The notes: generated by a model not told the origin, from the sequence alone. 64,000 bases of DNA from Planctomycetia bacterium (GCA_005790605.1 SXUI01000040.1:16941-80940), one strand, 5' to 3'; shown: positions 22,355-52,715, counted from the first letter of the stretch. A program made the numbers and translations.

Positions 22355-22357
22355 GAC

Positions 22358-22786: not shown

Positions 22787-22804
22787 ATCGTGTCTCCTTC
22801 AATC

Positions 22805-23167: not shown

Positions 23168-23170
23168 GAC

Positions 23171-26671: not shown

Positions 26672-26682
26672 CGATGTGACGC

Positions 26683-30363: not shown

Positions 30364-30402
30364 GCGCTGCACGAAGGAAACACCTCACAGGAGATTCAAC
30401 TC

Positions 30403-30732: not shown

Positions 30733-30751
30733 GGTCCATGTGCCCGACCTC

Positions 30752-31431: not shown

Positions 31432-31433
31432 CC

Positions 31434-31862: not shown

Positions 31863-31901
31863 GCCAGCACCTCTGTCGGTACTCACGAAGGAACACACTC
31901 C

Positions 31902-32327: not shown

Positions 32328-32353
32328 GCAACAAGAAACGAACGAGGAAATCT

Positions 32354-33638: not shown

Positions 33639-33666
33639 ACGCGGTCGGTACCTCTCGGAGATCCGC

Positions 33667-34014: not shown

Positions 34015-34024
34015 CAAGGCGCTC

Positions 34025-36526: not shown

Positions 36527-36546
36527 AGCTCGTTTGGAGTTGACGC

Positions 36547-37365: not shown

Positions 37366-37368
37366 GTC

Positions 37369-38457
37369 ATGTCGGACTACCTCAAGAATGTCAGACGCGG
37401 CGAGCCGATCGACCTCTCTGCAGCTGCGTGGAACAAACTGATGGATATGGCCCGCCGCGACGGCGTGCGTGGCGCATCCGGAATGGCTGACCCACTCTTT
37501 GCGAAGCGCGATCGCGATGTGGTGCTCGTCAAAAACATGTCAGGTATCGAGTACCCACGATGGGGTGTACTCGGTCTTGGCGCACCCGTGTATGTGCCGC
37601 AGCACAACCCGCCGAGCGGAAAACAAGAGTTGCCGCAAGACTTCGCGGAGAACTTAGTACTCCGCGGCGAGATGCCCGTCGCGGGAGTGCACGAGGGACT
37701 CTTCGGTGTGCTGCTTCAACCGCTCAAAGATGGTGACATTGGCGCCGCGATTGTGTCGGGGACTTTCGGTTGCGTGATTGTTGTGCAAGACGGGCGCCAT
37801 CGCTTCGCTGATGTGTATCCGTCGCGCGCGGCGGGTGGTTCGGGCGAGAGCTTCTCAAGTGGCGCAGCACTCATCGATGGCGATGTCTTGCTGCGCAGTT
37901 GCGATCACGGCGGCGCGGAGATCCTTTGGAAGGAAGCGGGACTGGGCGAGCGATATGCGGCGATCAGGCTCGCGCAACAACCTCGAACGAGATGGCGAGC
38001 AATCCTCGGAGCAGCGCACCTTCTCCCCGGCGAACGCTTTCGTTGGCGCTACGAATGGCACGAAGCGCGCATCGACGCCGATCCCGCCAGTCCGACCAGC
38101 GGCTGCTACATGCCACTCGAAGTCGGGCTCTCAAGCAAGGACACACTCGGCAGCGAAGTCGACGCGCGCATGGCGATCAACCGCTACGAGTCGCATCTGT
38201 CGCAGATTCATTCGCAACCTGACAATGGCATCGAAGGCTTCGCCATTGCTGGCGCGTGCCTCGTCCGGGGCGTACCCGAGTCGTGCCCGCCCGAGAGAGC
38301 GGCGGTGCCGATCCTCCAACCAATCCTTTCTGGTGTCTGCGTCGAGCTCGTCGCCGAGCCCGATTCCCACGGGAACACGCGATACACGTTCGAGGCGCTC
38401 AACGGTGTGATCTTCACCGAGATGACCGTGCCGCCGCTGCGAGGGACCTTTCAATGA
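37369..38457 (+). CDS. tail tip / baseplate-like protein (hypothetical)
   Basis: 362 aa. Position only. Confidence 0.4.
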   Translation: MSDYLKNVRRGEPIDLSAAAWNKLMDMARRDGVRGASGMADPLFAKRDRDVVLVKNMSGIEYPRWGVLGLGAPVYVPQHNPPSGKQELPQDFAENLVLRGEMPVAGVHEGLFGVLLQPLKDGDIGAAIVSGTFGCVIVVQDGRHRFADVYPSRAAGGSGESFSSGAALIDGDVLLRSCDHGGAEILWKEAGLGERYAAIRLAQQPRTRWRAILGAAHLLPGERFRWRYEWHEARIDADPASPTSGCYMPLEVGLSSKDTLGSEVDARMAINRYESHLSQIHSQPDNGIEGFAIAGACLVRGVPESCPPERAAVPILQPILSGVCVELVAEPDSHGNTRYTFEALNGVIFTEMTVPPLRGTFQ

Positions 38458-38891
38458 ACCCGCGTGTGAACGACCCAAACCAAGTGGTCGAAGCGATCCT
38501 CGCGATCGAAGCGATGCGACCACCGCCCCGCTTCATTGTGCACCTTCGTTGCCATGACAACGCGCTCGTGTCGGCACTCCGAAGAAGGCGCTGCGATGGT
38601 CTCGGCGTCGACACAGAAAGCGAAGCAGCCGACATGCGCGGAGCAATTGGAATCAACGCAAATGAGCGCGTGCCTGTCGCTGACGGCGTGGCCGACTGCG
38701 TCATCTTTCTTGGCGCAACCACTGCAGAGCTCGATCACGCGTGGGCTGAGATCCGCCGCATCGCCCGGCCGCGCGCGCACTTCCTCTTGTCGTTCACTCG
38801 CGCACCCACGGCAAGTTGGTGCAGCGCACGACTGACAGGAGCAAGCGTCTCACGGCGTCATCCCTTTGTGTGGGGCACGTTCCATGCGTGA
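38454..38891 (+). CDS. small SAM-methyltransferase-like protein
   Basis: 'DCVIFLGATTAELDHAWAEIRRIARPRAHFLL' resembles the C-terminal part of class I MTases. ATG overlaps the upstream stop. Confidence 0.3.
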   Translation: MNPRVNDPNQVVEAILAIEAMRPPPRFIVHLRCHDNALVSALRRRRCDGLGVDTESEAADMRGAIGINANERVPVADGVADCVIFLGATTAELDHAWAEIRRIARPRAHFLLSFTRAPTASWCSARLTGASVSRRHPFVWGTFHA

Positions 38892-39771
38892 GCACGCTGG
38901 CGACATCGCTGCGCTCCAATCGGGGCTTCGGCAACGCAGGCCAAGTTTGAGCGGCGTGCGATTGTGGACTGCCGACTTCGACCATGTGTCGCTCGCGAAC
39001 TTCTACCGCGGCAAGCACGCGTTTCTTGTGCTCAGTGGGCCAAGTCTCTTGACGCACGACCTGTCTGAGCTTTCGCGCCGCGGCATCGTGACGATGGGCG
39101 TCAACAACTCGTGGACAGTAGTACGCCCAACGCTGTGGACCTGTGTGGATACGCCCGATCGCTTCGTCGACATCGGATGGAAAGACCCGGGGATTACGAA
39201 GATCGTGCCTATTGAGCATTGGAACTCGCGGCTGCGTGTCGCGCTTGGTGAGGGCCGCTTTCGCGCGAGTCAATTTCGCGTGGCCGACATGCCAAGCGTG
39301 TTGATGTATCGGCGCAGCGACACGTTCGATCACCGCTCGTTTCTGAGAGGCGACACGATCTCGTGGGGCTGCGCGACAAGCGCGACGGACTCATTGGGCA
39401 TCAAGGGCAAGCGCAGCGTCATGCTCGCCGCGCTCGGGCTTCTCTACTACCTCGGCTTTCGCCAGGTCTATCTCGTGGGCGCTGACTTTCGCATGGCGAC
39501 CAACCAGAGATATGCCTTCGACGAACAGCGTTCGGCTCAGGCGATCCGCCACAACAATGTGCTCTACGAGAGTCTTGATAGGCGCTTCCACGCGCTGAAG
39601 CCAGAGTTCGCGAAGGCGGGTTTCTCTGTCCACAACTGCTGCGAACACAGCGGGCTCACTGCGTTTCCGAAGATCAGATTTGCCAAGGCCGTCGAACGCG
39701 CGAGCGCGGAGTGCTCGAAACCTGTGCCGACGGATGGTTGGTACGAACCAATACGGGAGAACAAACGATGA
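38884..39771 (+). CDS. DUF115 / MptE-like (Maf-type) domain protein
   Basis: 'HAFLVLSGPSL', 'GIVTMGVNN', 'LLYYLGFRQVYLVGADF' blocks resemble DUF115. Confidence 0.35.
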   Translation: MREHAGDIAALQSGLRQRRPSLSGVRLWTADFDHVSLANFYRGKHAFLVLSGPSLLTHDLSELSRRGIVTMGVNNSWTVVRPTLWTCVDTPDRFVDIGWKDPGITKIVPIEHWNSRLRVALGEGRFRASQFRVADMPSVLMYRRSDTFDHRSFLRGDTISWGCATSATDSLGIKGKRSVMLAALGLLYYLGFRQVYLVGADFRMATNQRYAFDEQRSAQAIRHNNVLYESLDRRFHALKPEFAKAGFSVHNCCEHSGLTAFPKIRFAKAVERASAECSKPVPTDGWYEPIRENKR

Positions 39772-40775
39772 GTATGACTTCAAGTGGCTCGTCAAATCCG
39801 ATGCGATACTTTCTCTATATTCCGGTGTGGGCCACGACGCAGCAGCCTGAGGGCAGCGACTCGGAGAGCAACTCGAGTGGATCATTGAGTGAGTCGAACA
39901 GCAGCGGATCGAACAGTGGCTCGGGTAGTGGATCATCGAGCGGCACTGGTGGCTCGTTGGGAGGATCAAGTGGCGGATCCAGTAGTGGATCAACCGATGG
40001 TTCGAGCGGAGGATCCACTGGCGGTTCTGGCGGTTCTGGTGGTTCTGGTGGTGGTTCCGGCGGCGGTGGCGGCGGATCGGGCGGTGGCGGCGGCTCCGGC
40101 AATTGCCTGCTCTACGGTTCCCTCGTCACGCTCTCTGACGGCAGCACGATTGCCATCGAAGAGCTGCGCCCTGGCATGGAGGTGGCGTCGCTTGCAGTGC
40201 CCGGGCTCGACACCGATGTCGACTACCGCGCGCAGTATGCGTGGCTCTCTTCGCACGGTCTTGATGGCTGCGCGCCGCGGAGCGTGCGCCTCGATCATGT
40301 GCGCAAGGGCGAGCACGACGGACACTTTGTCATCAACGATCGTATTCGCGCAACATTCGAGCACCCGTTTCTGATCCGCCGCGGCGACCAGTGGGGCTTC
40401 GCGTCCGCGCACCTCCTTGAGATCGGCGATCGGCTGGTCGTTCCCGCGCACGGTGGCTCACTCGGCGAAGAGCGCATCGAGTCGATTGAGGCAATCGCCG
40501 GCGTCGTGCGCACGGTCGCGATTCATGTGCCGGGCACGAACATATTCATCGGCGACGGCGCGTGGATGCACAATGATCTCTCCCTCAGTGCGATGTCGAG
40601 TTCGAGCGGCTCGATGTCGTCGGGATCGGGCATAGGTTTGTCGAGCGGATCAAGCAGCGGCGGCAAGAACAGTGGCTCGAGCTTCTCTGGCAGTGCTTCC
40701 ACGGGAGGCACCGCGCTCTCGGGAAGCGGACCGCAGTTTTCTTCGACATTCACTCCGACAACTGGCAAAGGTTGA
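39768..40775 (+). CDS. Ser/Gly-rich protein with internal Hint (bacterial intein-like) domain
   Basis: Low-complexity S/G N- and C-terminal regions flank a block that starts with Cys (SGN-CLLYGSLVTLSDGSTIAIEELRPGMEV) and ends 'VAIHVPGTNIFIGDGAWMHN', a Hint-domain signature. Confidence 0.55.
   Translation: MSMTSSGSSNPMRYFLYIPVWATTQQPEGSDSESNSSGSLSESNSSGSNSGSGSGSSSGTGGSLGGSSGGSSSGSTDGSSGGSTGGSGGSGGSGGGSGGGGGGSGGGGGSGNCLLYGSLVTLSDGSTIAIEELRPGMEVASLAVPGLDTDVDYRAQYAWLSSHGLDGCAPRSVRLDHVRKGEHDGHFVINDRIRATFEHPFLIRRGDQWGFASAHLLEIGDRLVVPAHGGSLGEERIESIEAIAGVVRTVAIHVPGTNIFIGDGAWMHNDLSLSAMSSSSGSMSSGSGIGLSSGSSSGGKNSGSSFSGSASTGGTALSGSGPQFSSTFTPTTGKG
39990..40100 (+). repeat. coding tandem 9-bp (Gly-Gly-Ser) repeats
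   Basis: ggcggttct ggcggttct ggtggttct ggtggtggt tcc ggcggcggt..., a simple-sequence tract prone to slippage. Confidence 0.6.
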
Positions 40776-40776
40776 A

Positions 40777-41286
40777 ATGCGACGATGGCACATTGTGGCC
40801 GACCTCTGCAATCGCCACGGCCTTCGCCGCGGCGTCGAACTCGGCGTGCGCGAGGGACGCTTCACGAAGCACATCCTTGTTCATGTGCCCGACAGCCAAC
40901 TGATCGGCGTCGATGTGTGGCGCGCGCTCCCCACGCGTGACGCGCCCGGCGCAGAGACATACGCAGAGTGGCCCATGGCTCGCTACCGCGCTCAAGCGAT
41001 CGCGCTCGTCGATCAGTTCCCGAATCGTTGCCGCATGCTCGAGATGACCACTGACGAGGCTGCCAAAGCGCTGCCCGACGCAAGCGTCGACTTTGTATTC
41101 ATCGACGCAGACCACACTCAGGATGCCGTCGCGCGCGACATCGCTGCGTGGACACCGAAGGTGCGACCAGGCGGACTGATTGCGGGCCACGACATCCGCT
41201 GGCCATCCGTGCGCCGCGCTGTGGCAGCAAGCGGGCCATTTGAGGAAGTGGGCCACGACGAAGTGTGGTTGCGGTGGATCTCATGA
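40777..41286 (+). CDS. class I SAM-dependent methyltransferase (Methyltransf_24 / TylF-like O-MTase family)
   Basis: 'LGVREGRFTKHIL', 'DASVDFVFIDADHTQDAVARDIAAWTPKVRPGGLIAGHD'. Confidence 0.65.
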   Translation: MRRWHIVADLCNRHGLRRGVELGVREGRFTKHILVHVPDSQLIGVDVWRALPTRDAPGAETYAEWPMARYRAQAIALVDQFPNRCRMLEMTTDEAAKALPDASVDFVFIDADHTQDAVARDIAAWTPKVRPGGLIAGHDIRWPSVRRAVAASGPFEEVGHDEVWLRWIS

Positions 41287-41930
41287 CGCCGACAATCGCG
41301 TGTGTACTGCGCTCGGGCGGCCGCTACAGCGCTGACTGGGTCGCGCGACTCAAGCGCGGCATCGAACGCCACACGACGGTGCCCCACCGCTTCGTGTGTC
41401 TTACTGATGTCGATGTGCCCGATGTCGAAACGATCGCACTCGTCGAAAGTTGGCCAGGATGGTGGTCGAAGATCGAGCTCTTCCGGCCGGGGCTACTCAC
41501 CAGACAAACGCTCTACCTTGATCTCGATGTCGTGATCGTCGGCGACATCGCACCGCTCCTTCGAGCATGCGACGCCTTTACGATGGTGCACGAGCGCGGC
41601 ACGAGTAATTACTTCAATTCGTCAGTCATGGCGTGGAACGGCGACATGAGTTTCCTGCACAATGCGTTTCGCGCAGACGCGCTTCAACACATGCATCGCT
41701 ATCGCAGTCATCCGCGCATCGGCGATCAGGCGTTCATCAGCGAGTTCCTTGTGAGCGAAGGTAAGAAGCCACGAACCTTTCGCGGCGTGCTCGGCTACGA
41801 CGCGATTGTGTCGTACAAGCGCGATCGATGCGAGAGTCGTCCCCCGCCGAGCGCATGCGTCGCGAACTTCCATGGCCGACCAAAGCCGTGCGATTTCGAG
41901 ACGGGCTGGGTGGCGGAAGCGTGGAAGTGA
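41283..41930 (+). CDS. putative glycosyltransferase-like protein
   Basis: DxD-like 'YLDLDVVIVGD' with nucleotide-sugar transferase-like context. Weak. Confidence 0.3.
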   Translation: MTPTIACVLRSGGRYSADWVARLKRGIERHTTVPHRFVCLTDVDVPDVETIALVESWPGWWSKIELFRPGLLTRQTLYLDLDVVIVGDIAPLLRACDAFTMVHERGTSNYFNSSVMAWNGDMSFLHNAFRADALQHMHRYRSHPRIGDQAFISEFLVSEGKKPRTFRGVLGYDAIVSYKRDRCESRPPPSACVANFHGRPKPCDFETGWVAEAWK

Positions 41931-42205
41931 GAACCCACACAAGCACAGGCGAGCCCACGAAGCGGAGTGCCTAACCAACAAGGCTTCGATGTGGGTCACG
42001 CCCGTGCAGACATCATCTGCAAAGCCCCGACATCAACAGCAAAGTGTGGCACGACAACGAGTTACGCCACTCTTCCACGCGCAGGCAACTCGTCAGTCAG
42101 CGTCGACTTCGGTCGACTCCCGCTGCTGTGGTTGTCAAAGCATAGCAAAGATGCGAGCATGCCCACTCGAATCCACACCACCGCGACCGATTCGGGGAGC
42201 AATAA

Positions 42206-43843
42206 ATGGCTGAAAGTTCAGCGTATGGCGGACGTGGACGCCCATGGCATCCAGAGTTCGTCGAGTACATGGAGTTCATCGTGCAGCACCCCGTGTACAG
42301 CGGAATGCCGGATGCATACTACGAACCTGGGCGCATTCAGTGGGAAGCCCCATCCAATCGCAGCAGCGGGCAGTTCAAGGACACGCATGGTCGACGTGCA
42401 AAGTGGTGGGCCGCGAAGGCCGCGGAAATCGGCGTGTCAACAGCTTCTGATCAGTGGATCTCACGCGTCGCCAAAACCATCCACCCTACGAAACTGAAAC
42501 CGTGCAAGATCTGCGGACGCCAGCTTCAGCTTCGATATGCCTATCCCCAGGAAAGGCTACTGCAGAGACTTCGAGATTTGCGCGGGGTTCCAACCGACTT
42601 CCAATTCGATCCGCTCGAGCCAATCTCTGACCTGGTACTTCGATTGGATCGACACTGCGGGTCCACCGTGATTTCACAACTTCCATCCGTGTTCAGCAGC
42701 GGACTCAAGGCCCTCAACACCAAGCCGATTCCTCGCTCGATGCCTGAATGGATCGACTGGCTCGAGAAGCATTACATCCCGTCAGAGCCACGTGGCGTTC
42801 TCAGTCCAGGCGCCATGTCAAATGCGCCAGACCGCTTCGACGGCTTTCACTGCGACAACTTGTGCTGCAGAAAGCACGCGGATAAAGGTCGAAGCAAGGA
42901 GAATTTGCAGACGTACGTGACAGATCGCCGGGTGTTTGAGTACTGGTCTGCCGGGGACTGGGTGGCAGCCGACCGTCTCATGGGCCTCGTGCGTACGACA
43001 TTGTCTTCGGCGACCTGCCGAAACGGCCATCAAGGACCATGCGCGGCTGACCACATTGGCCCGATTTCGCTAGGCTTTTGTCATCGGCCACGGTTTCAGT
43101 TGTTGTGCACCCCCTGCAACAGTGCAAAGAGCAACCGAATGTATCTCTCCGATGTTCTGCTTTTGAAGCAACACGAAGCGACAGGAGAGACAGTCGTTTC
43201 GTGGCATTCGCGTGCGGTGTGGGACCTTTGCAAAGATCGTGTGGGTACCGACGAGCACGCGAGGCGACTGTCAAAGTTGATGCGCGACAACCGGCACTCT
43301 CTGATGGCTGCACTCAAAGAGGTGTACGACGCCAACGGCCTGACCTATCTTGCGTCCCTCCTCGAACTCGACCGCGCAAATTTTGACGTGACATTCACCG
43401 AACTCAAGGCAACCGATCATCTCACGGCATATGCAAAGTTGGTGCATTCGGCACGCGATACCAAGTATGCGGTCGAACAGAAGGTCCGCCGCCTTCGGAT
43501 CGCGTTCGACGAACTATCCGCGTACTTTGAGAAGCGGAATAGAAACGCATTTGTCGCCTGCCCAACCACCACGCATCTGAAACGAGCGGTCGATAGTCTT
43601 TCAAAGGCTCGATCTGGATTCTCGATGCAGGAGGCCTTGCTTGCGAAGGCGAATGCCGCAGCGAAGGATGCCCAAGGAAGCCTATTCAGGGCCTCTCTCG
43701 ATTCGACCCGAGCGGTTCCCGCTTCGGCCTTTGCCGCAACACATGCAGCACTCGAAGCGCATATGAACCAGACGGGGAGAACCCTCGCCGAACTCTGGGA
43801 ATCTGATCGCTACTGCCGCGAGATAGCTGAGGATGTCGACTAG
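42206..43843 (+). CDS. candidate Type IIS restriction endonuclease with HNH (His-Me finger) motif
   Basis: 'CAADHIGPISLGFCHRPRFQLLCTPCNSAKSN' fits the HNH pattern. Convergent with two DNA MTases. 545 aa, a size similar to BsaI/Eco31I-type REases. Confidence 0.4.
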   Translation: MAESSAYGGRGRPWHPEFVEYMEFIVQHPVYSGMPDAYYEPGRIQWEAPSNRSSGQFKDTHGRRAKWWAAKAAEIGVSTASDQWISRVAKTIHPTKLKPCKICGRQLQLRYAYPQERLLQRLRDLRGVPTDFQFDPLEPISDLVLRLDRHCGSTVISQLPSVFSSGLKALNTKPIPRSMPEWIDWLEKHYIPSEPRGVLSPGAMSNAPDRFDGFHCDNLCCRKHADKGRSKENLQTYVTDRRVFEYWSAGDWVAADRLMGLVRTTLSSATCRNGHQGPCAADHIGPISLGFCHRPRFQLLCTPCNSAKSNRMYLSDVLLLKQHEATGETVVSWHSRAVWDLCKDRVGTDEHARRLSKLMRDNRHSLMAALKEVYDANGLTYLASLLELDRANFDVTFTELKATDHLTAYAKLVHSARDTKYAVEQKVRRLRIAFDELSAYFEKRNRNAFVACPTTTHLKRAVDSLSKARSGFSMQEALLAKANAAAKDAQGSLFRASLDSTRAVPASAFAATHAALEAHMNQTGRTLAELWESDRYCREIAEDVD

Positions 43844-43845
43844 GT

Positions 43846-45090
43846 TTATGAGGAGGCCAGCTTGCCGCGCCGCCGAACGCTACCCGTATTGATTGGATCC
43901 GGCAGCTCGGTCAGGGAATCAACATCCGATCCTCGAGTGCTCAAAGCCGCGATGTAGGACTGTGCGCTAGTGCACCCGCGCATCAGCGATTGATAATCCG
44001 ATTTTGGAGCGGTTACATATTCGAGAGTCTCCCCGTTCTCACCTGCAACGAGCGCTGGTAAATCGCCGAGGGCCTCAAGGACGGAGATCGGTGTGCCGCC
44101 AAAGAGGCCGTTCGTCAGTGGTCCGTGAGGCAATTGAAACGCCGCACGCTTCCTGAATCCAACAATGATGATTCGCTTCCGACGCTGCGGCACGCCATAC
44201 TCCTCGGCGGATACGCGCCAGACCACTATCTCCCTAGCGACGGAACGAAGCGCCTGACTGACGCGCTCGAAGACCCGACCTGATTCCATGTTGATCAGGC
44301 CCGTCACATTCTCGAACAAGAAGGCGTCGGGATCGACCGCCTCGACGATCCGACAGTAGTCATTGAAGAGCAGATTGCGTTCATCTGCCTCGCTACGACG
44401 ATTCCCCGCGGTCGAGAACCCCTGGCATGGAGGTCCTCCAACGAGAACCTTCGGCACTCGCGAATCGCCGGAGGCTGCCAACTCGACGATCCTGTTTCGG
44501 ATGTCCTCTTCTCGAACATCGCCAACCACAACATTTGGGTGGATGTTCCGCACGAATGTCTTCATGGCGTGTTCGTCGATATCTGATGCCACCAAGCTCT
44601 TCCAACCAGCCCAGTGGAATCCGAGTGAGAGCCCACCTGCACCCGCGAACAAGTCGACGAGATTCCCGGGGCGCCCGAACGAGGTGGCCAACCAATACGC
44701 AAGGAGCGGCGGTACCGCGTTCCCGATCTGCTTTGATACAGCGGTGAGCGGTCCGGTGAAAACGAAGCTGTCAGGGAAACTCTGCAGGCGGGCCGCTTCG
44801 CGGTAGGAGAGCGTGCGAAGTTGCGCCCACTCGTAATGCAAGTGGCAACCGTTCCCGGGTCGACCAACGTAGGTAGAGATCGTGTACGAGGGCTGCGACG
44901 GATGCAGCCTCCCGTAATAGGTTGAACGACTTCCCTCGCCTCGCGCGTAACTCTCGCGGATCTGCTTCAGTCGCTGAGAAGGCACGGACTCGGGAATGTC
45001 CTTCCAGTTACCGCCTGGCGGAACAGCCCGCGCAAACTGCAGATCGAGTGCGCTAAGTTTCGGCGCAATATGATTCCGAATCATCACCAC
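43846..45090 (-). CDS. DNA (cytosine-5)-methyltransferase, circularly permuted motif order
   Basis: Motif I 'DLFAGAGGLSLGF', IV 'GGPPCQGFSTAG', VI 'FLFENV'. Motif IX/X-like 'LSYREAARLQSFPDSFVFTG' lies N-terminal to motif I. Confidence 0.85.
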   Translation of the reverse strand: MVMIRNHIAPKLSALDLQFARAVPPGGNWKDIPESVPSQRLKQIRESYARGEGSRSTYYGRLHPSQPSYTISTYVGRPGNGCHLHYEWAQLRTLSYREAARLQSFPDSFVFTGPLTAVSKQIGNAVPPLLAYWLATSFGRPGNLVDLFAGAGGLSLGFHWAGWKSLVASDIDEHAMKTFVRNIHPNVVVGDVREEDIRNRIVELAASGDSRVPKVLVGGPPCQGFSTAGNRRSEADERNLLFNDYCRIVEAVDPDAFLFENVTGLINMESGRVFERVSQALRSVAREIVVWRVSAEEYGVPQRRKRIIIVGFRKRAAFQLPHGPLTNGLFGGTPISVLEALGDLPALVAGENGETLEYVTAPKSDYQSLMRGCTSAQSYIAALSTRGSDVDSLTELPDPINTGSVRRRGKLASS

Positions 45091-46685
45091 AATTCCTTGT
45101 AAAGAAGGGCGTCTCGCTCTTCCGCTCTCAGTTTCGGGAAAGCCGGCAGCACGCTGGCAAAGGCGTCGCGATCGAGTCCGTACGCGCGCGCCACGGCCAC
45201 CTCAAGCCCTGGAAGTTCGATAGAGGAGTTCAACCGCCTATCGAGCATCAGCAACAGCCGTTCGCGCTCGGGCGACTCGAGCAGAAGAGTTAGAGGTGCG
45301 GCGCACCGTCGCAGCACCCCCTGCGAAACATGCGTTGTCGCGAGCTTGGTTCGAACCTGAAGCTCAAAAACCAAGCTGTTCATGACGGCGAGCAAAGCCG
45401 AAAGGGCTTTCGCGTCACCAGTTCGAAGAAACGCGATTCCAAGTGAGTTGCCCGTCACATTCCTTGGCGGCACGAAGGCGACGTGCATTCGCCTGCGCTG
45501 GGTGGGACGCGAGACATCGCGCCATGCAATCCTTCGCTCCAACACAGTTGCGGGAATCTGACGCTTAGTCGGATCGATGTAGTCGATGGATTCTCGCTTG
45601 ACCTGGAATGGGAACACATGCCGCCCCTTCAAAAAGGGGATGCCACCAACGACAGATCCAAATGACTCAGCCAAGCGTGTCTCGTCGAGCTCTCTTCCGA
45701 GCCGCAAGCCGATGCGTAGATCCTCTTCTAGCATTGAGAGCGATGCGTGTTGGCCGCAAATCAACCGAACGATCTCCTCCGCATCTCCTGCTACATTGAG
45801 TGCCAAGGGATCACTCAAACTCGAACGGAGGATATGTTCGCGCGACTCAACCTGATTGCGCGCAGCATCGAAGCGCGTGAGCTGAAAGCAACGCGTTGGT
45901 CCGCCTTCCCGCGCTGCCAAGGTTACGAACGCCTGGTCGACCGAGTCGAAAAACTTTGCTTCCGCGGGGTAGTACTCGATTCCGCTCACATCTAGCCTCT
46001 GGAACAAGCTTGCTCTGAAGGGCGATGAAGCTTGGTCGGCGAAGATCGCTGCCGGCAGAACTATGTACATCGCAGCGCTTGCCCGAAGCAGCCGCGCAGA
46101 CGCGATGGCGCCCGCGCGCGCCAGATTTACCCCGTACCCCGTGACCGCCTTGCCTGATGCACTCTTGCAGCCTGGGAACTCACGATCGAGCCACTCGGCA
46201 TATCCCCGCAGTGACTGCCTGTACTCGCCGGGTAACTCCACAGCGTCGCGCGAGTCCGGCTTGAGGAGTTCCCAAGGAGGATTGGTCAGCAGCAAGTCAA
46301 CACTTGCCGTCTCGAGGGGAACTCTTCGGAATGTATCTCCGCTCAACGCTACGAGTCGAACTCTCGCCGAAAGCCCAAGATCCTGAAGGAGGGCACCGAT
46401 TGCGCTGCGGGCGGTGTGTACCGCTTCGGCGTCGTAGTCAAAAACTCGGACCTCCGACAGACGTTCAATCGCGTTCTGATCGATCGCAGCTCGTCGCAGC
46501 CAAGCGACTACCAGCCTCCCGTCGCCACAAAATGGATCGCAGACGCACTGGGGCTGAAATCCCGACGCGACTGCTCTTGCGGCAAGCGCCCCCGCTATCT
46601 CGAGAGGCGTGTAAAAGCGACCGGTCAGCCGCGCCTCAATGTCAACTCGACTCGACGAGCGCTTCGCGATCTCAACATGCAGCAT
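45084..46685 (-). CDS. N6-adenine DNA methyltransferase (gamma class, NPPW)
   Basis: Motif I 'VCDPFCGDGRL' precedes motif IV 'LLTNPPWELL'. Confidence 0.8.
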   Translation of the reverse strand: MLHVEIAKRSSSRVDIEARLTGRFYTPLEIAGALAARAVASGFQPQCVCDPFCGDGRLVVAWLRRAAIDQNAIERLSEVRVFDYDAEAVHTARSAIGALLQDLGLSARVRLVALSGDTFRRVPLETASVDLLLTNPPWELLKPDSRDAVELPGEYRQSLRGYAEWLDREFPGCKSASGKAVTGYGVNLARAGAIASARLLRASAAMYIVLPAAIFADQASSPFRASLFQRLDVSGIEYYPAEAKFFDSVDQAFVTLAAREGGPTRCFQLTRFDAARNQVESREHILRSSLSDPLALNVAGDAEEIVRLICGQHASLSMLEEDLRIGLRLGRELDETRLAESFGSVVGGIPFLKGRHVFPFQVKRESIDYIDPTKRQIPATVLERRIAWRDVSRPTQRRRMHVAFVPPRNVTGNSLGIAFLRTGDAKALSALLAVMNSLVFELQVRTKLATTHVSQGVLRRCAAPLTLLLESPERERLLLMLDRRLNSSIELPGLEVAVARAYGLDRDAFASVLPAFPKLRAEERDALLYKELW

Positions 46686-47412
46686 ACTTCACCCCTCGAA
46701 CCAACCGAGACACCATTTCGTCTGGCACAAGAGGCGCATTTTGACATTGAACGACCGCTCGCCGAATCACGGCTCGAACCACCCCGACGGAGCGAAGGTT
46801 CGCGTTCGAGCCAAATCGAATTGCCGGCCCTTGATTCGCTACAGCATTCTCGTTTCTGATCACGCGTGCGAGTGACTCCCCGTCCAATGAGAATGCAAGC
46901 CAGTCACTCGAAGTGGGAGCCGCTCCCTCATCGATCATGAGCCTGTCACCGGGCTGCAGACAAAGGTCAGACTCGCACGACGCCGAAAGGCACCAAAGTA
47001 CGGCTATTCCGCCGCCTGGTAGCAGTTCCGCAAACCACTTCGCACCGGCTTCCGACCGGTCATGAGGGGATTGAGCAACGCCGACCTGGCGCTCGCAGAG
47101 ATCCGGGCACGCACTCGACAGCACCTGCAGGCCGCGGAACCGCCGAGCAGCGAGTCGCACGTAGCCCTTCCGTTCGAGTGCTTTGAGGTGGTCACGAACC
47201 GTGGCGGTCGATCGGAAGCCCAACTCGGCCTGCAACTCGCGGTAGGTCGGTGGAAGATCGCCGCGCAGCGAGCAAACCCGCAGCACTCGAAGCACGCGAA
47301 GCTGGGCTGGGGTAAGCGGGCTCAAGGTGGCGCTACCGTACCACTCATTTGAGTGCCCCGCAAGCGTTGCCTCCGTCGTGGCCGCTCGAACATTGTCCGC
47401 ACATGCTGACAT
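46672..47412 (-). CDS. LexA/CI-like transcriptional regulator (wHTH + S24-peptidase-like C-terminal domain, catalytic residues unclear)
   Basis: 'LTPAQLRVLRVLRVCSLRGDLPPTYRELQAELGFRSTATVRDHLKALERKGYV' is a LexA-type wHTH. The C-terminus aligns with LexA's beta domain but Ser/Lys are not evident. Start chosen at an internal Met (ORF runs to 47652). Overlaps the m6A MTase start by 14 nt. Confidence 0.55.
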   Translation of the reverse strand: MSACADNVRAATTEATLAGHSNEWYGSATLSPLTPAQLRVLRVLRVCSLRGDLPPTYRELQAELGFRSTATVRDHLKALERKGYVRLAARRFRGLQVLSSACPDLCERQVGVAQSPHDRSEAGAKWFAELLPGGGIAVLWCLSASCESDLCLQPGDRLMIDEGAAPTSSDWLAFSLDGESLARVIRNENAVANQGPAIRFGSNANLRSVGVVRAVIRRAVVQCQNAPLVPDEMVSRLVRGVKYAAC

Positions 47413-47434
47413 ACTGCGGCCGACGAGCAAGCAC

Positions 47435-48163
47435 ACTATGCCGGACTGCGACTCACCTCCCGAACACGACTCAAGCGACATCACCGCGAACTCGGCAGGA
47501 TCTCCTTGGACTCCGGTACGGTTCCAACTGTTGGAGTGGTTTCGCCAAGATGCGCCGTCGCTCGCTGGAGCGTACGAAGCAACTGTCTTTCTCGTTTCCA
47601 CTCCATCAGTTCCGGCGCGGGTCCATTTAGTCTGCCACCTTGTGCGCGACATCTACGGCAAGCTTCCAGAGATCCTTGACGGGGAGTTTCGTTTCCAGAG
47701 TGCCGGTGCTGTCTACCCACCATTCATCGATACGATCGCCAACCATTGGAGATCACCCGATGGCGCCCTGTTAACCAACGCCGCAGCTTCCGAAACCGCG
47801 CCGAGCGCGTCCGACCGCGTTAACGTTCCGAGAGCGGCTGCTCGCGCGGTAGACGACCTCCTCGCTCGACGAGCGGTGCTCAAAGATCAGCCCCGCAGCA
47901 CGGAGGTCCTTGCTCGAGCGCTATTCAGACGCTTCGCCGAATCTGGGCTTCAACCACCTGCTCGCCTGGCCGCCACGTTCGAGGAGGAGAGGAGATGGTT
48001 CACCGACCGTGCGCACCTGGTACTTGAGCGCGCCAAAGTACCTGCTGAGGAAGGGCTGCTCGATCATTTCGCCTCATTCGAGGGTGCGCTCCATTCGCTC
48101 GTCGGCGAGTACTTCACAGGGAAGGAGGAGCTGGATGCAATCCTCGCACAAGCCAACGCCTGA
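47435..48163 (+). CDS. hypothetical protein (first gene of divergent operon)
   Basis: Start at the internal Met of ORF 47327-48163. No recognisable domain. Confidence 0.35.
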   Translation, partial: TMPDCDSPPEHDSSDITANSAGSPWTPVRFQLLEWFRQDAPSLAGAYEATVFLVSTPSVPARVHLVCHLVRDIYGKLPEILDGEFRFQSAGAVYPPFIDTIANHWRSPDGALLTNAAASETAPSASDRVNVPRAAARAVDDLLARRAVLKDQPRSTEVLARALFRRFAESGLQPPARLAATFEEERRWFTDRAHLVLERAKVPAEEGLLDHFASFEGALHSLVGEYFTGKEELDAILAQANA

Positions 48164-50993
48164 GCAGGTTATGGCAGCGGTCGCGCGGATCACCGCGCCT
48201 CATCTCGAGCGCTACTTTTTCGAGAGGCTCGAAAACCCCGCATGGATCGAGCCCCTGCACGCGCACGGCTTCTTCAAGGATCCGCCCGCTCCCGAGCGAA
48301 TGGACGGCGGAGTGCGCTGCAGACTCTGGCCTCAGTCGGCGTATCTCGCACGCATGGCGCCGAGTGCGCCCGAGGCGGTCGCGACGATTCTCGGCACGCT
48401 CGAGACGAGCAACTGGATGGTTGTGCGCGACATGCTAGTGGCCGCGAGCCAACTGCCCTCGCCGCTCGTTCGATCACTCGTGCCTAACCTCGGCGACGCC
48501 GTTCGCTCGCATCGACTTTGGCATTCACTCGACACCCTCGGCGCAATCGTCGCAAACTTGGCGCACGACAATCACTCTGAGGTCGCTATCGACTTGATGA
48601 TCCGCGGGTTCGGAGGTGTTGTTGAGCGAGACGAGCAGACCCTTCGACAGGCGTCATATCCATTCTTCGAGGCGCTGACTGAGTCCGTGGTGCCCGCGCT
48701 GGCGCGATCCGCTCCGCTCCCGCTACTTGAGGTGTTGCTGCGATGGGTTCGCTCCGCAGCTTCCAAGGAGCACCCCTCGCGGGCTGATGGCGATGAACTG
48801 TCATACATCTGGCGACCAGCGATCGAGGAACACGAACAAAATCGGGACCACGATTTCGCAGGTCGGCTGCTGGGAGTTGTGCGCGATGTGTCGGAGCGCG
48901 CCATTCGCGATGCTGGCCTCGGCGTCAGCGCTCTTCTCGACGTACTCCGACCCGATGGTTCGGTCATCGGTCAACGCCTTGCCCTGCACCTCATCGGAGA
49001 GTTTAGCGAGAGGGAGCATGGCTTGACAGAATCAATGATGCTCAACCACAGGCTGTTTGCAGACCATCGTGTCAAGCACGAGTACGCACGGCTGATGGCG
49101 CGAAGATTCTCTCTGCTCAATCCCGACCAGCAGTCTCAGTGGTTCTCATGGGTCGTCGCTGGGCCACCTGATGATTCCGCCGCGGACCCCGCGAGCCGCT
49201 CCCAGTATGTTGCCTATTGGAAGTTCTGCCGGCTGCACTGGATCTGGGAGCACCTGACAGGTGCGCACCGCGCCTTCTACGAGAAGATGTTGACGGAACA
49301 CGGCGTTCCGGAGTTGGCGGATCTCAATATTCACTTCGGCGGGGTTCAGTCAGTCGTTGAGCTTTCCCCGTTCACAGTCGAGGAGCTTGCGGCAAGAGGC
49401 TTTGCCCCGGCGATCGAACACGCCCGAAGCTGGCGTCCAGAACCATGGTACCGTCGGTTTGATGCGCCTTGCATTGAAGGGTTCGCCAACACATTTCAGC
49501 AGTATGTCGCAACCGCGCCCGACCGCTTCTCTCGCGGTGCAACAATTCTCATCGGCCTCTCCGCGCCGTTCATTCGAGCGTTCCTACGCGCCATGATGGA
49601 CGCGATCAAGCGCGGCACGCGAGTTGATATCGTGAGCATCCTGACACTCTGCCACTGGGTGCTCTCGCGCCCGGTCGCGGAACGAACCTCGCCCAACGGC
49701 GAGTGCGAGCCCTTGCTAGATAAGGACTGGCAATGGTGTCGAGAGACAATCGGAGAACTGGCGGCGGCTGTGTGTGGAGCGCGCACCGATTCCCGACCGA
49801 CCTACGGGGTCGAACTGCGAGAATCTCTCTGGACCTCGATAGAACCGCTCCTTTGCGACAAGGCTGACTCGCACATCGTCCAACAGCAGGCCTGCATCGA
49901 TCCACGTGTGTCTGATTGGACGCTTCTTTCGGTCAATTCGCCGCGCGGGAAGGTGATGGCGGCCATTTGGGCGTACGCGGACTGGCTGGCGTGGCATCTC
50001 GATCCTGCACGCAAGGACCACACCAAGTTTGCTGGGACACTCGATCAGATGCCTGAAGTGCGGTCTGCGCTAGAGCGGCAGCTCACCGATGAATCAGCCG
50101 GGTTCACGGGACGTGCCGGATTCGGGATCCGGCTGGGTCTACTCTGGTGGATCGACACAGACTGGTTGGCCAGACATGCGTCAGTGATTTTCGATCTGCG
50201 CGCCTTCGAGATTGAACCGCAGCGGGCGTTCGGTTGGGCTGCTTGGAATACGTTCTTGTTCTCGAATCGGCCACACGTCGAGCTGTACAAGGTGCTTCGG
50301 GACCAGTTCGGTTACGCCGTTGATCAGGCCGCTCGCTGCGACCAAGTTGGTGACTCGAGGGAAGGGCCGTACTTCCATCTTGGCCAGCACTTGATGACGC
50401 TCTACGGTCGCGGAGACTTCGGATCTGACGCGGAAACGGCATGGGAAGCCGACCAAGGAGTCATCCGACGCCTCGTCACCCAGGCTCAATGGGCAATCCG
50501 CAGCTACGCGATCGAGTTTGTCGGAATCAGCCTGAATGATTCCGGCGGCAAGGTTCCCGACGAGGTGAGAGAGAGATTTGTCGGGCTCTGGGAGCGATAT
50601 TGGGCACAGGCCGGTTCCACTGATGCGCGCGCCGATCCGAACAGCGGCGTCTTTGGTTGGTGGTTCTGCTCGGGCGTGTTCGATCCGGCTTGGTCGATTC
50701 AACAGCTTGAGAGCTTCGTCGCACGCTGTCCAAAGGCCGAGCCCGATCATCTGATCGTGGAGCGCCTGGCAGCGACGGCGGAAGCCGATCCGCTGCGCGC
50801 AGCCAAAATCGTGGACATGCTTGTCGCAGGAGATAACGAAGGCTGGCGCGTTCGAGGATGGGCCGCCGACGCCAAGAAGGTGCTGGCGATTGCCCTCAAG
50901 GCAGGAGGTGAGGCGCGTGGGGCCGCCAAAGCCGCAATCGACAGACTTGGAAAGCACGGCCACAACGACTTCGGAGCCTTGCTGAAGGCTTGA
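48135..50993 (+). CDS. large hypothetical protein (953 aa, Trp/Arg-rich, predicted alpha-helical)
   Basis: Strong RBS (GAAGGAGGAG) 5 nt before the ATG. Overlaps the upstream gene by 29 nt. No recognisable enzymatic motif. Confidence 0.5.
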   Translation: MQSSHKPTPEQVMAAVARITAPHLERYFFERLENPAWIEPLHAHGFFKDPPAPERMDGGVRCRLWPQSAYLARMAPSAPEAVATILGTLETSNWMVVRDMLVAASQLPSPLVRSLVPNLGDAVRSHRLWHSLDTLGAIVANLAHDNHSEVAIDLMIRGFGGVVERDEQTLRQASYPFFEALTESVVPALARSAPLPLLEVLLRWVRSAASKEHPSRADGDELSYIWRPAIEEHEQNRDHDFAGRLLGVVRDVSERAIRDAGLGVSALLDVLRPDGSVIGQRLALHLIGEFSEREHGLTESMMLNHRLFADHRVKHEYARLMARRFSLLNPDQQSQWFSWVVAGPPDDSAADPASRSQYVAYWKFCRLHWIWEHLTGAHRAFYEKMLTEHGVPELADLNIHFGGVQSVVELSPFTVEELAARGFAPAIEHARSWRPEPWYRRFDAPCIEGFANTFQQYVATAPDRFSRGATILIGLSAPFIRAFLRAMMDAIKRGTRVDIVSILTLCHWVLSRPVAERTSPNGECEPLLDKDWQWCRETIGELAAAVCGARTDSRPTYGVELRESLWTSIEPLLCDKADSHIVQQQACIDPRVSDWTLLSVNSPRGKVMAAIWAYADWLAWHLDPARKDHTKFAGTLDQMPEVRSALERQLTDESAGFTGRAGFGIRLGLLWWIDTDWLARHASVIFDLRAFEIEPQRAFGWAAWNTFLFSNRPHVELYKVLRDQFGYAVDQAARCDQVGDSREGPYFHLGQHLMTLYGRGDFGSDAETAWEADQGVIRRLVTQAQWAIRSYAIEFVGISLNDSGGKVPDEVRERFVGLWERYWAQAGSTDARADPNSGVFGWWFCSGVFDPAWSIQQLESFVARCPKAEPDHLIVERLAATAEADPLRAAKIVDMLVAGDNEGWRVRGWAADAKKVLAIALKAGGEARGAAKAAIDRLGKHGHNDFGALLKA

Positions 50994-51233
50994 CGACTGT
51001 GGAAGACTCACGCTGGGAACAACACAGCGATTCCAGATAGGCTGGAGTCAAAGCGGGATGTGCGCTCGGGCTTGCCTCGATTTCGCAGCCATCAAGGCAG
51101 GTACCATTGACGACCGAAACGAGCGTTCGAGAGGCTCAGGTTGGGCATGCGAAACCCATCGCGAATCATCTGATGAAATCCCGCAATGGATGGATCAATA
51201 CGATCTGTGTTCAGACAAACGAGCGAGTGGGCG

Positions 51234-51455
51234 TCACTCAGCGTCAGACCGATCCGATGGCTTCGCTCGTCGAGCGGCTTCTTCGAAAGCACGCAGATCC
51301 GACTCAAAGTCTGCCCGCTTCCCTTGTTCCCTTCGTCTAACGACTGGCGTGGATCTCCAAAGAAACGATACAACTCGCCCAAACAGCCCTAGACCTAGGC
51401 CGAGGATCGCGCCAACGACAGCGAATCCGAGAAGCGTCTGAATCAAGTCTGGCAT
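51234..51455 (-). CDS. small single-TM protein
   Basis: 73-aa ORF with a TM helix (LLGFAVVGAILGLGLGLF) and a charged tail. Weak. Confidence 0.25.
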   Translation of the reverse strand: MPDLIQTLLGFAVVGAILGLGLGLFGRVVSFLWRSTPVVRRREQGKRADFESDLRAFEEAARRAKPSDRSDAE

Positions 51456-51489
51456 TTGGTGCCCTTACGATCATGATAGAATACGCTGT

Positions 51490-52086
51490 ATGGAAAAACG
51501 AGATCGACTCCTGCGCCTGGACGGTGGTCCAAATGAGGCCCGCCAATTCTTCTCAGAGCGAAACATTTCACATATCCATGAAACCAAGAGCCTAATCATC
51601 TTCGGGTGGACTTGCGAACCGAGGGACAATCCCGCAATTGGGGCGCGAGGGTATGAGTGCGCGAGATCTCTTCCGTCGGTGGACCATGCCACGGCCTGTA
51701 TCGCTGGCGACTACCTCATGGACTGTCATGTTGCGGCCCAGTTGTTGGAGAACCGGCAACGACCAGGACTGCTCTTCCCGGATCGCATTGAACTGTACAT
51801 GGGTGACTCAAGACTCGCAATTGCCCAGCGGATGGTTGTGCTCAGTCGCGTCGACGGTCAATCTGGTTGGATGCCGATCGCAGATGAGATTCGCAATTTC
51901 TTCGCGCAGATCGCGCCAGACGTTGGGCCAGCATTCGCCGCAACCGCTCGTGTTTTTGACGCGACGTTAAGGATGGTGCGGGCCGTCCGAGAGATTGAGA
52001 AATTGAAGAGCGAGGCTCGCCCCACCGATGGCAACCACCACAAGTACTGGACTCGCCAGGAGATTGATCGCCCGAGAGCGCAGTAG
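51490..52086 (+). CDS. hypothetical protein
   Basis: 198-aa ORF preceded by -10-like 'tagaat'. No recognisable domain. Confidence 0.4.
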   Translation: MEKRDRLLRLDGGPNEARQFFSERNISHIHETKSLIIFGWTCEPRDNPAIGARGYECARSLPSVDHATACIAGDYLMDCHVAAQLLENRQRPGLLFPDRIELYMGDSRLAIAQRMVVLSRVDGQSGWMPIADEIRNFFAQIAPDVGPAFAATARVFDATLRMVRAVREIEKLKSEARPTDGNHHKYWTRQEIDRPRAQ

Positions 52087-52151
52087 TTGGCTGAGCTTGC
52101 CCGACTTTCGTAGACACCCATTGAGGCGAGGCTACTCGCCAGGAGTGTTCC

Positions 52152-52352
52152 ATGGGCAAGCCCTCAAAGACCGTCAAGAAGCGACTGCGCCGCACCTTCA
52201 CGCCCGAGTTCAAGGCTGAGGCCGTTCGCCTCTGCAAAACCGGCGATCGCGGCCTCGGCAAGTCGCTGCCGATCTCGACCTGATCGAAAGTTCTCCGCGT
52301 GACCGCACGTGTTTCGCCGCCATCGGAAGTCGCACGGCGACCTCATGCAACG
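52152..52352 (+). pseudogene. IS3-family transposase OrfA remnant (frameshifted/truncated)
   Basis: 'MGKPSKTVKKRLRRTFTPEFKAEAVRLCKTGDRGLGKS*', then in another frame 'QVAADLDLIESSPRD', matching the IS3/IS911 OrfA N-terminus. Disrupted after ~43 codons. Confidence 0.55.
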
Positions 52353-52693
52353 ATTAACCCTCGGCACCCATCGAGTTTCGCTCCCGTTTCGATCAGGATC
52401 GCACTCCTCGGCATCGAAAGAAACGGTCCTCACCGCTCTGGCGCGCTCAAAACGCCATCCAAAGTTTGATCCCGTTTCGATCGGGGAGTTCCTCGAAGAC
52501 CGCGTTGGCGCTGCTGCGCCCGCGGTCTTCTCGTATCACTCCCCCGCGTGTGGGAAGTCCGCTTCGCAGACTTCACACACCGCGTCATGCGGACATGCAA
52601 TCGAAGCTCGCGCCCGAAACGAAGACCAACGCACTCATGTCCACATGACGCTCTTGACATTGCGGCTCGCACCGCAAAGAGCGGTGCAAGGCG

Positions 52694-52715
52694 TCAAGTC
52701 CAGTCGGGGGAGTTC
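52694..52715. repeat. attR-like direct repeat of the tRNA-Asn 3' end
   Basis: Exact copy of tRNA positions 7656-7677, with no surrounding tRNA structure. Confidence 0.7.

Follow-up and report, generated by a model that had tools for sequence, protein, structure and literature searches.

The window analysed here, a 64,000-nt stretch of a Planctomycetia bacterium assembly (GCA_005790605.1), contains an integrated prophage that extends from a tRNA-Asn gene (7601-7675) to an exact 22-nt copy of the 3' end of that gene (7656-7677, repeated at 52694-52715), with a shorter repeat core, TCGGGGAGTTC, at 52481-52491. The prophage carries genes for a serine recombinase, a terminase, a portal protein and a primase-polymerase, and near its right end a cargo segment places two overlapping genes beside a LexA-like regulator and a restriction-modification (RM) cassette. 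The features of the locus are as follows:

7601..52715, no strand: integrated prophage, tRNA-Asn to 22-nt repeat
8812-10371: serine recombinase, prophage gene
23713-26088: terminase gpA, prophage gene
26919-28391: portal, prophage gene
42206..46685, no strand: Alw26I/Eco31I/Esp3I-type RM cassette (REase, m5C MTase, m6A MTase)
42206-43843, plus strand: REase of the Alw26I family
43846-45090, minus strand: m5C MTase
45084-46685, minus strand: m6A MTase
46672..47325, minus strand: regulator heading the MTase operon, LexA-like wHTH and degenerate S24-like C-domain (probable TTG start)
47331..47366, no strand: conserved inverted repeat, putative operator of the LexA-like regulator
47364..52383, no strand: 5-kb cargo segment with the gene pair and an orphan ORF (51490-52086)
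47438..48163, plus strand: small gene for a 241-aa all-helical protein, Arg70 and His193 invariant; proposed effector, nuclease-like with a possibly HEPN-like fold
48135..50993, plus strand: large gene for the 952-aa sensor, an alpha-solenoid with homology to Dsr1 in the C-terminal part outside SIR2 (Avs7/Dsr1 sensor type)
48135..48163, plus strand: dual-coding overlap of the two genes, 29 nt

The cargo segment is absent from related elements carrying the same RM cassette. Homology to four such loci (L012-L015) in blastn stops at 47363 and resumes at 52384-52491, and it is because of this 5-kb indel (47364-52383) that the pair stands beside the LexA-like and RM genes in the window. Together with the tRNA-Asn, the 22-nt repeat and the recombinase, terminase and portal genes, the indel bears out the first-pass annotation, which had put the pair inside prophage cargo and beside an RM system. 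The 198-aa ORF at 51490-52086 has no homologue in any other locus and was rejected as a third component.

The large gene encodes a protein rich in Trp (3.7%) and Arg (8.5%) that is modelled by AF2 with confidence as an almost wholly helical alpha-solenoid (pLDDT 88.3, pTM 0.60), in agreement with the composition and all-helical structure first ascribed to it. The accompanying fold search of the PDB retrieved generic HEAT and karyopherin repeats alone, from a library that ends in April 2026 and does not include the Avs7 entries 9N00, 9N01 and 9YIX. The protein had also been described as unassignable, but it matches the Dsr1 models of both PADLOC (PDLC04166, E = 1.3e-17; residues 221-728 against positions 546-1016 of the 1227 in the profile) and NCBIfam (NF041818, 1.8e-7). 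Three of its relatives, which belong to a family of more than 276 homologues, match the PADLOC model at 5.2e-34, 8.8e-35 and 2.8e-22, always in the non-SIR2 part of the profile. Dsr1 is a known defence protein, defence-associated sirtuin 1 (Gao et al. 2020; Garb et al. 2022). These profile matches make the 952-aa protein a homologue of the sensor region at the C-terminus of Dsr1. It is not Dsr1 itself, because the NCBIfam score (29 bits) falls far under the equivalog cut-off (1400). Searches of Pfam, PADLOC and NCBIfam found no SIR2 domain and no P-loop or NACHT-type match in either protein of the pair, and profiles built from either family drew only chance matches from the PDB sequences.

According to Lee et al. 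(Nature 2026, PMC13581612), the Dsr1 sensor is homologous to that of Avs7 and has the major capsid protein of phages as its ligand, the sensor of this superfamily being a bilobed, sharply bent alpha-solenoid; the likeness of the pair's sensor to Avs7 rests on this link through Dsr1. [quoted passage not shown] The pair, which had been put forward as a novel anti-phage or abortive-infection module, is very probably a module of that kind, but its novelty is not supported, given the homology of its sensor to Dsr1 and the split and HEPN-like forms already listed (PMC13581612); we regard it as a real two-gene module that varies a known type of system.

To define the partners of this sensor, we compiled a census of 78 sensor genome loci. 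The small domain is encoded by a separate gene in 33 loci and fused to the sensor in 6; a further 21 present a divergent small-like domain, 12 a separate SIR2 gene upstream of the sensor, 5 are truncated and one holds a partial small-domain ORF. The small and large families occur on common contigs, the gene fusions are ordered small to large, and pairing or fusion of the two domains is obligate. Since the sensor is nearly always preceded by the small domain, separate or fused, and in 12 loci by SIR2 instead, the small protein occupies the effector slot. The SIR2 partner in one of these loci (L004; Pfam PF13289, 1.2e-14) directly adjoins the Gabija genes GajA and GajB. SIR2-partnered sensors share 26-41% identity with the sensor in the window and small-partnered sensors mostly 24-46%, and the natural alternation of small domain and SIR2 on closely related sensors provides a clean case of effector swapping.

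As in Dsr1, the effector comes first in the domain order and the sensor second, with a sensor region corresponding to profile positions of about 546-1016 and close relatives that are partnered with a SIR2 protein (L004). Unlike Dsr1, which is a single polypeptide with a SIR2 (NADase) domain, the pair consists of two overlapping genes, as in 33/78 loci (fused forms occur elsewhere), and its proposed effector is a 241-aa helical protein with a different fold, made from a gene of its own. Like the non-STAND members of the Avs7/Dsr1 superfamily, it joins a Dsr1-type sensor to an N-terminal partner, here of a possibly HEPN-like fold, but its family is mostly two-gene and centred on Planctomycetota, and it lacks the STAND NTPase domain that lies between effector and sensor in Avs7.

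We consider it fairly probable that the two genes (47438-48163 and 48135-50993), which the prophage carries as cargo towards its right-hand end, encode a Dsr1-type anti-phage system divided between two polypeptides. The alpha-solenoid would act as the sensor and, by homology with the Dsr1/Avs7 sensor, would most likely clamp a newly made phage structural protein. The documented ligand of this sensor class is the major capsid protein and, although that of the pair may differ, the trigger expected by analogy with the superfamily would be an HK97-fold major capsid protein, whose clamping by the lobes would activate the system. The 241-aa helical protein would be the effector, in the place held by the SIR2 NADase in Dsr1, and the two proteins would be made together because the small gene overlaps the large one from upstream. 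The sensor would restrain the effector until binding of the ligand sets it free or brings about its assembly, and the activated effector would then stop phage growth, probably by abortive infection. This reading turns a prophage protein once regarded as unassignable into a testable prediction, namely a sensor of the Dsr1/Avs7 type that recognises a structural protein of phages. The existence of separate-gene and fused forms opens an experimental route to the way in which sensors of this kind keep their effectors in check.

The small protein would most likely act as a nuclease or RNase through Arg70 and His193, which are invariant in its family and lie on different helices, 123 residues apart. 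The window's small protein retrieved nothing from Pfam (even at E = 10), PHROGs or NCBIfam. The canonical Rx4-6H motif that defines HEPN RNases (HepT, RnlA/LsoA, Cas13, Csm6, the AbiA C-domain) is missing from the small domain, which is matched by no HEPN Pfam model; a local R191-A-H193 constitutes an RxH, with R191 conserved in fewer than 80% of 166 family members. The predicted pPIWI-associating nuclease family PF18165 (pP_pnuc_1) is matched by 9/127 small-family members, all below threshold (best E = 8.2e-5; one example scores 18.4 bits over profile positions 7-41, against a gathering score of 26.3 bits), but not by the window's own protein, and we treat these matches only as a lead for remote homology. 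A literature search for PF18165/pP_pnuc_1 found nothing, and the 2013 pPIWI paper is not known to describe this domain.

The absence of a canonical catalytic motif and of a Pfam match for the window's protein, as well as the generic character of its helical-bundle fold, would also suit a defence system in which the small protein is no enzyme but an adaptor, an oligomerisation module or an inhibitor, with killing achieved otherwise, for instance through recruitment of a host nuclease or sequestration of EF-Tu, which is incorporated by SeAvs7 (Lee et al. 2026, PMC13581612). We regard this alternative as unlikely: on similarly close sensors the place of the small domain can be taken by SIR2, itself a genuine effector, an invariant Arg and His are typical of metal-independent nucleases, and the weak match to a predicted nuclease family is recurrent. 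If the small protein is indeed a nuclease, its family, which comprises 863 representative clusters, is widespread (mainly in Planctomycetota, plus many other phyla) and has no Pfam family, might, on a tentative reading, found a large unannotated group of effectors with a new Arg+His nuclease site on separate helices of a HEPN-like bundle, acting as a detachable subunit held by a capsid-sensing solenoid and freed on infection. This would be a two-component design unlike the single-chain Dsr1 and Avs proteins.

The genes to the left of the pair form a distinct unit. The REase matches PF09665 (1.6e-174) and TIGR02986 (494.8 bits, cut-off 443.85), the m5C MTase matches PF00145 (2.1e-63) and the m6A MTase scores 241 bits with TIGR02987, below the cut-off of 353.5; with a family REase and both m6A and m5C methyltransferases, the cassette is, on profile evidence, of the Alw26I/Eco31I/Esp3I type IIS. 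The LexA-like ORF, which ends at 46672, matches PF01726 (LexA_DNA_bind, E = 1.3e-16) and, in its N-domain only, LexA structures in the PDB (8s7g, 1lea; 2e-8). It overlaps the start of the m6A MTase gene by 14 nt and heads an operon LexA-like, m6A MTase, m5C MTase, as first annotated; this order, with the convergent REase, is kept in the four other loci. Its most likely start is TTG 47325 (217 aa), as the longest ORF (to 47652, 326 aa) and the gene caller's GTG 47436 (254 aa) both run across a DNA element that relatives keep despite a change of frame. Long versions of the gene, and with them a true overlap of divergent coding regions, were therefore rejected, and the regulator, previously thought to abut or overlap the pair, is separated from it by a likely 112-bp divergent intergenic region.

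The conserved element, an inverted repeat (47331-47366) whose DNA sequence survives a 1-nt shift of frame in L012-L015, is probably the operator of the LexA-like regulator. Its core palindrome, CACTCATTTGAGTG (CACTCA-NN-TGAGTG), at 47342-47355, is followed by GGTACGGTA on the minus strand, is unique within the window and lies 83-96 nt upstream of the small-gene ATG. Aligned with true LexAs (that of E. coli and eight more), the LexA-like subfamily presents Cys for Ser119 in 6/7 members and Arg, Glu or Gln at the Lys156 position (Cys and Arg, respectively, in the window's protein), with no Ala-Gly site and no PF00717 domain. This alignment of the S24 residues upholds the earlier suspicion that the C-domain lacks the Ser/Lys dyad, and makes RecA-stimulated self-cleavage unlikely; of the hallmarks of LexA/S24 repressors, the protein retains the LexA-type winged-helix domain. 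Its gene opens an RM operon, shares an overlap with the gene behind it and has a conserved palindrome in front, a layout that is that of an autoregulated RM controller (C) protein, but it differs from C proteins in combining a LexA-type wHTH with a degenerate S24-like domain instead of a small Xre-type HTH, and in heading the methylase operon rather than the endonuclease gene. We propose that this non-cleavable LexA derivative controls the methylase operon of the RM cassette and binds the palindrome at 47342-47355; the locus would document such a controller, with its likely operator, for a type IIS RM cassette.

Location of the palindrome within the common 112-bp region means that binding could touch the promoter of the pair. 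The first-pass annotation had set the pair under an SOS- or CI-type repressor. That the pair is a defence module silenced by the divergent regulator and induced by SOS or prophage induction is nevertheless improbable. The regulator and its operator travel with the RM cassette in L012-L015, all of them without the pair, and no LexA-like or Alw26I-type RM neighbour is found at any other sensor locus (0 of about 87). The stretch shared with L012-L015 stops at 47363, which means that the pair brought along 74 nt of upstream sequence of its own, and the substitutions at the dyad argue against release by RecA. Control of the pair by the LexA-like protein is thus not supported, and any effect would be incidental to the common region. 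A sigma-70 promoter scan of 47.0-52.8 kb, uninformative for an organism of this type, found none.

Both plus-strand ORFs of the pair are real, with the start of the small gene corrected from 47435 to ATG 47438. The small gene ends at 48163 and the large gene starts at ATG 48135, and the resulting 29-nt overlap and a Shine-Dalgarno-like run, GGAAGGAGGA, at 48120-48129, 5 nt ahead of that ATG, support the translational coupling originally suggested. Because the large ORF lies in the +1 frame relative to the small one, the overlap is kept at the nucleotide level in both frames and fused single-ORF relatives exist, the two ORFs might be taken for the halves of a gene broken by a frameshift (through a sequencing error or in a pseudogene), or for ORFs that programmed +1 frameshifting connects. 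This appears quite improbable, and a frameshift artefact was rejected, since the split form recurs, with a conserved sensor ATG, in 27 independent genomes (a 29-nt overlap in 19/30 scorable genome loci and a 38-nt overlap in 8/30) and in three assemblies of the same element. The SD-like motif is found in 16/30 loci, the in-frame start with its SD-like run is present at the window locus, and no slippery motif was identified.

The sensor family is patchily distributed over many phyla and one archaeon, and centred on Planctomycetota. Other sensor loci adjoin Hma-like, toxin-antitoxin (TA), recombinase, Gabija, RM and IS genes, but the RM type of the window recurs at none of them and some contexts (L003, L011) do not plainly resemble defence islands. 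When 110 flanking ORFs at 20 genome loci were scanned with PADLOC, the matches included mad3, mad8, MTase_II and AriA, as per-family output without background and hence with no measure of enrichment. That the pair is instead a housekeeping or structural protein of the alpha-solenoid kind, with a partner resembling a chaperone and no link to phage defence, is very improbable in view of the significant matches to Dsr1 defence models, the alternative SIR2 partner next to Gabija, the prophage-cargo site, the TA, RM, IS and recombinase neighbours and the sporadic spread over distant phyla.

The arrangement described in the first-pass annotation holds, with minor corrections, and comprises the following features.

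42206-43843, + strand: Alw26I/Eco31I/Esp3I-family restriction endonuclease
43846-45090, - strand: m5C methyltransferase
45084-46685, - strand: m6A methyltransferase, Alw26I type
ending at 46672, - strand: ORF with a LexA_DNA_bind domain, overlapping the m6A gene by 14 nt
ATG at 47438, + strand: small gene of the pair, 241 aa
48135-50993, + strand: large gene of the pair, 952 aa
51490-52086: orphan ORF, 198 aa, beside the pair

The reported overlap of the LexA-type ORF with the start of the m6A methyltransferase gene was recovered, as was the 29-nt overlap within the pair, with GGAAGGAGGA at 48120-48129 ahead of the large-gene start at 48135. The + strand gene pair is present, but the start assigned to its small gene (47435) lies one codon ahead of the ATG. 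The large protein is Trp/Arg-rich, as noted (Trp 3.7%, Arg 8.5%).

No Pfam domain was found in the 952-aa protein, which had been considered unassignable, but it does match models of Dsr1, a known single-chain defence protein in which a SIR2 NADase is followed by a sensor. Residues 221-728 align to positions 546-1016 of 1227 in the PADLOC Dsr1 profile (E=1.3e-17), which correspond to the region after the SIR2 domain, and the NCBIfam Dsr1 model is matched at 1.8e-7, far under its equivalog cut-off; relatives of the protein score higher on the PADLOC model (5e-34, 9e-35 and 3e-22). Structure prediction bears out the anticipated helical fold, the AF2 model being a confident alpha-solenoid (pLDDT 88.3), and a fold search of a PDB library without the SeAvs7 entries 9N00, 9N01 and 9YIX returned only generic HEAT and karyopherin repeats. 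The sensor family spans more than 276 clusters, each of about 950 aa and every one annotated as 'hypothetical', distributed patchily across the Planctomycetota, Thermodesulfobacteriota, Acidobacteriota, Chlamydiae and NC10, and further in the Bacillota, Cyanobacteria, Actinomycetota and one Thermoplasmata archaeon.

The 241-aa protein has no match in Pfam, PHROGs, PADLOC or NCBIfam. A profile built from 28 homologues defines a family of 863 representative clusters; among the best 150 of these most members are about 230 aa long, and the long proteins all carry the domain N-terminally with the sensor directly after it, fusions that constitute a classic 'Rosetta stone' link between the two families. 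Across 127-166 diverse members, Arg70 and His193 are the sole invariant residues, His67, Tyr46, Glu215 and Asp233 are nearly invariant, and the canonical HEPN Rx4-6H motif is absent. One Pfam family recurs, the 'predicted pPIWI-associating nuclease' PF18165, matched in 9 of 127 members with all matches below threshold (best E=8.2e-5), and in the single member inspected the match spans the segment with an H-x-x-R-[DE] motif. Because of these invariant residues, the absent Rx4-6H motif and the sub-threshold PF18165 matches, we call the 241-aa protein nuclease-like, with a putative HEPN-like fold and short of HEPN membership.

We conducted a census of partners encoded upstream of the sensor in 78 genome loci.

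Partners of the sensor in 78 genome loci
33/78: small domain, separate gene
6/78: small domain, fused to the sensor
21/78: divergent small-like domain with the same H-x-x-R-[DE] ... AH pattern, 16 of these fused
12/78: SIR2-like protein of 305-350 aa, separate gene
5/78: sensor N-terminus or upstream region beyond the contig end
1/78: partial small-domain ORF (L064)

Identity to the window sensor is 26-41% for SIR2-partnered sensors and mostly 24-46% for small-domain-partnered ones; the ranges are comparable, which indicates that the two partners have replaced one another among similarly related sensors. This exchange with SIR2 is the strongest evidence that the small protein probably occupies the effector slot. 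The SIR2 partner was verified in locus L004 (PF13289 at 1.2e-14; ThsA, LmuA and Dsr1 matched more weakly), where its gene comes immediately after a Gabija GajA/GajB pair (E=1e-184 and 5.5e-144) and the locus also encodes an Eco57I-type enzyme, a NERD protein and an integrase. In this Deltaproteobacteria island (L004 5874-13003) Gabija is directly followed by a split Dsr1, in which the genes for the SIR2 protein (330 aa) and the sensor (1000 aa) overlap; gene calling in the source record had overlooked the SIR2 ORF.

The overlap between the small and large genes (48135-48163 in the window, and its equivalents in the related loci L016-L093) codes for protein in both frames, and its nucleotides are conserved across phyla. 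Of the 30 scorable loci among the 33 with separate genes, 19 have an overlap of 29 nt and 8 have one of 38 nt. The same bases, read as ...GAT GNN ATC CTT CAG CAA GCC AAC... and as ATG NNA TCC TTC AGC AAG CCA ACC, encode ...ELDxILQQAN in the small protein and MxSFSKPT in the sensor. Translational coupling through a strong ribosome-binding site had been proposed; the conserved overlap, accompanied by a Shine-Dalgarno-like run in no more than roughly half of the loci, fits coupling.

The surroundings of related loci are suggestive of an association of the pair with mobile and defence genes. In L001 the pair adjoins a serine recombinase with DUF2924, an HNH protein and an MqsA/SocA pair, and the fused form in L007/L008 lies directly behind a DUF499-DUF3780-DUF1156-Fic-PLD/SNF2 cluster and ahead of a PhdYeFM-PIN pair; the surroundings of L003 and L011 are less telling. 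In L009 an IS3 element interrupts the small gene and a toxin-antitoxin pair follows. There (L009 7906-9882, metagenome-assembled genome GCA_030153525.1), residues 25-214 of the small protein are encoded before the IS3-family insertion and residues 215-240 after it, with the sensor gene intact, and the insertion may have inactivated a toxic gene. When 110 flanking ORFs were scanned with PADLOC, the matches were scattered; they are unnormalised and so provide no measure of enrichment. Toxin-antitoxin, Gabija and recombinase genes neighbour the sensor in some loci. Neither a LexA-like gene nor this Alw26I-type restriction-modification (RM) system lies near the sensor in any of about 87 other sensor loci.

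Since no other sensor locus has such a neighbour, we assign the LexA-like regulator to the RM cassette and take its position beside the pair to be peculiar to this element. Its close homologues always precede the same m6A-m5C methyltransferase operon with an identical 14-nt overlap, and the endonuclease gene is convergent to this operon in L012 and L013, where the contig extends far enough. The pair is absent from all four elements sharing this cassette (L012-L015), and the proposal that it is under a LexA/CI-type regulator was not borne out. Likeness to LexA is confined to the N-terminal winged helix (PF01726 at 1.3e-16; PDB LexA entries at about 2e-8), and the C-terminal half is still alignable to the S24 domain of genuine LexAs. 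In that alignment the catalytic Ser is replaced by Cys in 6 of 7 subfamily members, the Lys by Arg, Glu or Gln, and the Ala-Gly cleavage site is missing, which supports the earlier suspicion that the protein is incapable of self-cleavage. The subfamily also carries a conserved C-terminal extension, about 25 aa long and with ...KYAA(C/R) at its end (window 46672-46750), which overlaps the m6A methyltransferase start and is not present in true LexAs.

Just upstream of the LexA-like gene, a CACTCA-NN-TGAGTG palindrome followed by GGTACGGTA is conserved before every LexA-like/Alw26I-type RM cassette examined. In the window it occurs once, at 47342-47355 (+ strand), within an extended inverted repeat (47331-47366). 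Because it is unique in the window and kept although the reading frame across it shifts by 1 nt between relatives, we regard it as a non-coding site, most simply the likely operator of a LexA-derived RM controller with Cys for the catalytic Ser. The gene most likely starts at a conserved TTG/GTG codon (window 47325), giving a product that begins MSPLTPAQL..., resembling the MKALTARQ of LexA. This start leaves a 112-bp divergent intergenic region, instead of the abutting or overlapping starts previously described.

These features suggest a mechanism in which sensor and effector would be co-produced from overlapping genes and, as the fusions imply, form a complex. Upon infection, the solenoid may bind a phage structural protein, homology making a capsid protein the best guess; the ensuing change of conformation would free the effector or bring about its assembly, and the effector would cut RNA or DNA via Arg70 and His193 and abort the infection. 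A prophage-borne copy would double as superinfection exclusion. The RM cassette would be under separate control, with the non-cleavable LexA-derived regulator acting at the conserved 47342-47355 palindrome. According to Lee et al. 2026 (PMC13581612), the Dsr1 sensor is homologous to that of the STAND protein Avs7 and is a bilobed clamp, binding both the HK97-fold major capsid protein and EF-Tu; 'split proteins' were analysed along with their neighbours. Sensors of the Dsr1/Avs7 type whose effectors can be swapped, HEPN-like and split forms among them, are already known from that work. The suggested novelty of the anti-phage module consequently does not extend to the kind of sensor, but it does to the small R/H domain family defined here, with its obligate sensor pairing. 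Also new are the finding that the alternative SIR2 partner has a gene of its own, the conserved dual-coding overlap of effector and sensor genes, and the recognition of the LexA-like protein as a putative RM controller.

The prophage location of the region was corroborated by a tRNA-Asn gene (7601-7675), whose last 22 nt recur exactly at 52694-52715, 45 kb downstream, and by genes for a large serine recombinase, a primase-polymerase, a ParB-methylase, a gpA-type terminase and a lambda-type portal. Homology to L012-L015 in blastn breaks at 47363 and restarts at 52384-52491, which defines 47364-52383 as a 5-kb indel holding the pair and the 198-aa ORF; the latter matches nothing in Pfam or PADLOC and has no homologue among the loci retrieved. 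A shorter att-like core, TCGGGGAGTTC, lies at 52481-52491, about 200 nt inside the 52694-52715 repeat, so that there are two candidate right-end att sites, which might have been left by a second integration event. In L012-L015 the arrangement is the joined, attP-like one. The ParB_N domain is fused to an N6/N4 DNA methylase (20640-22079), a second, orphan methyltransferase of the prophage beside the RM cassette. At the end of the structural region, an ORF (39711-40775) has very long Gly/Ser-rich tracts around a central block that, judged by eye, looks like a Hint/intein-type domain. About 1.3 kb past the outer candidate right end lies a gene (54027-56240) for a Band_7/SPFH-domain protein of 737 aa (705 aa according to the gene caller).
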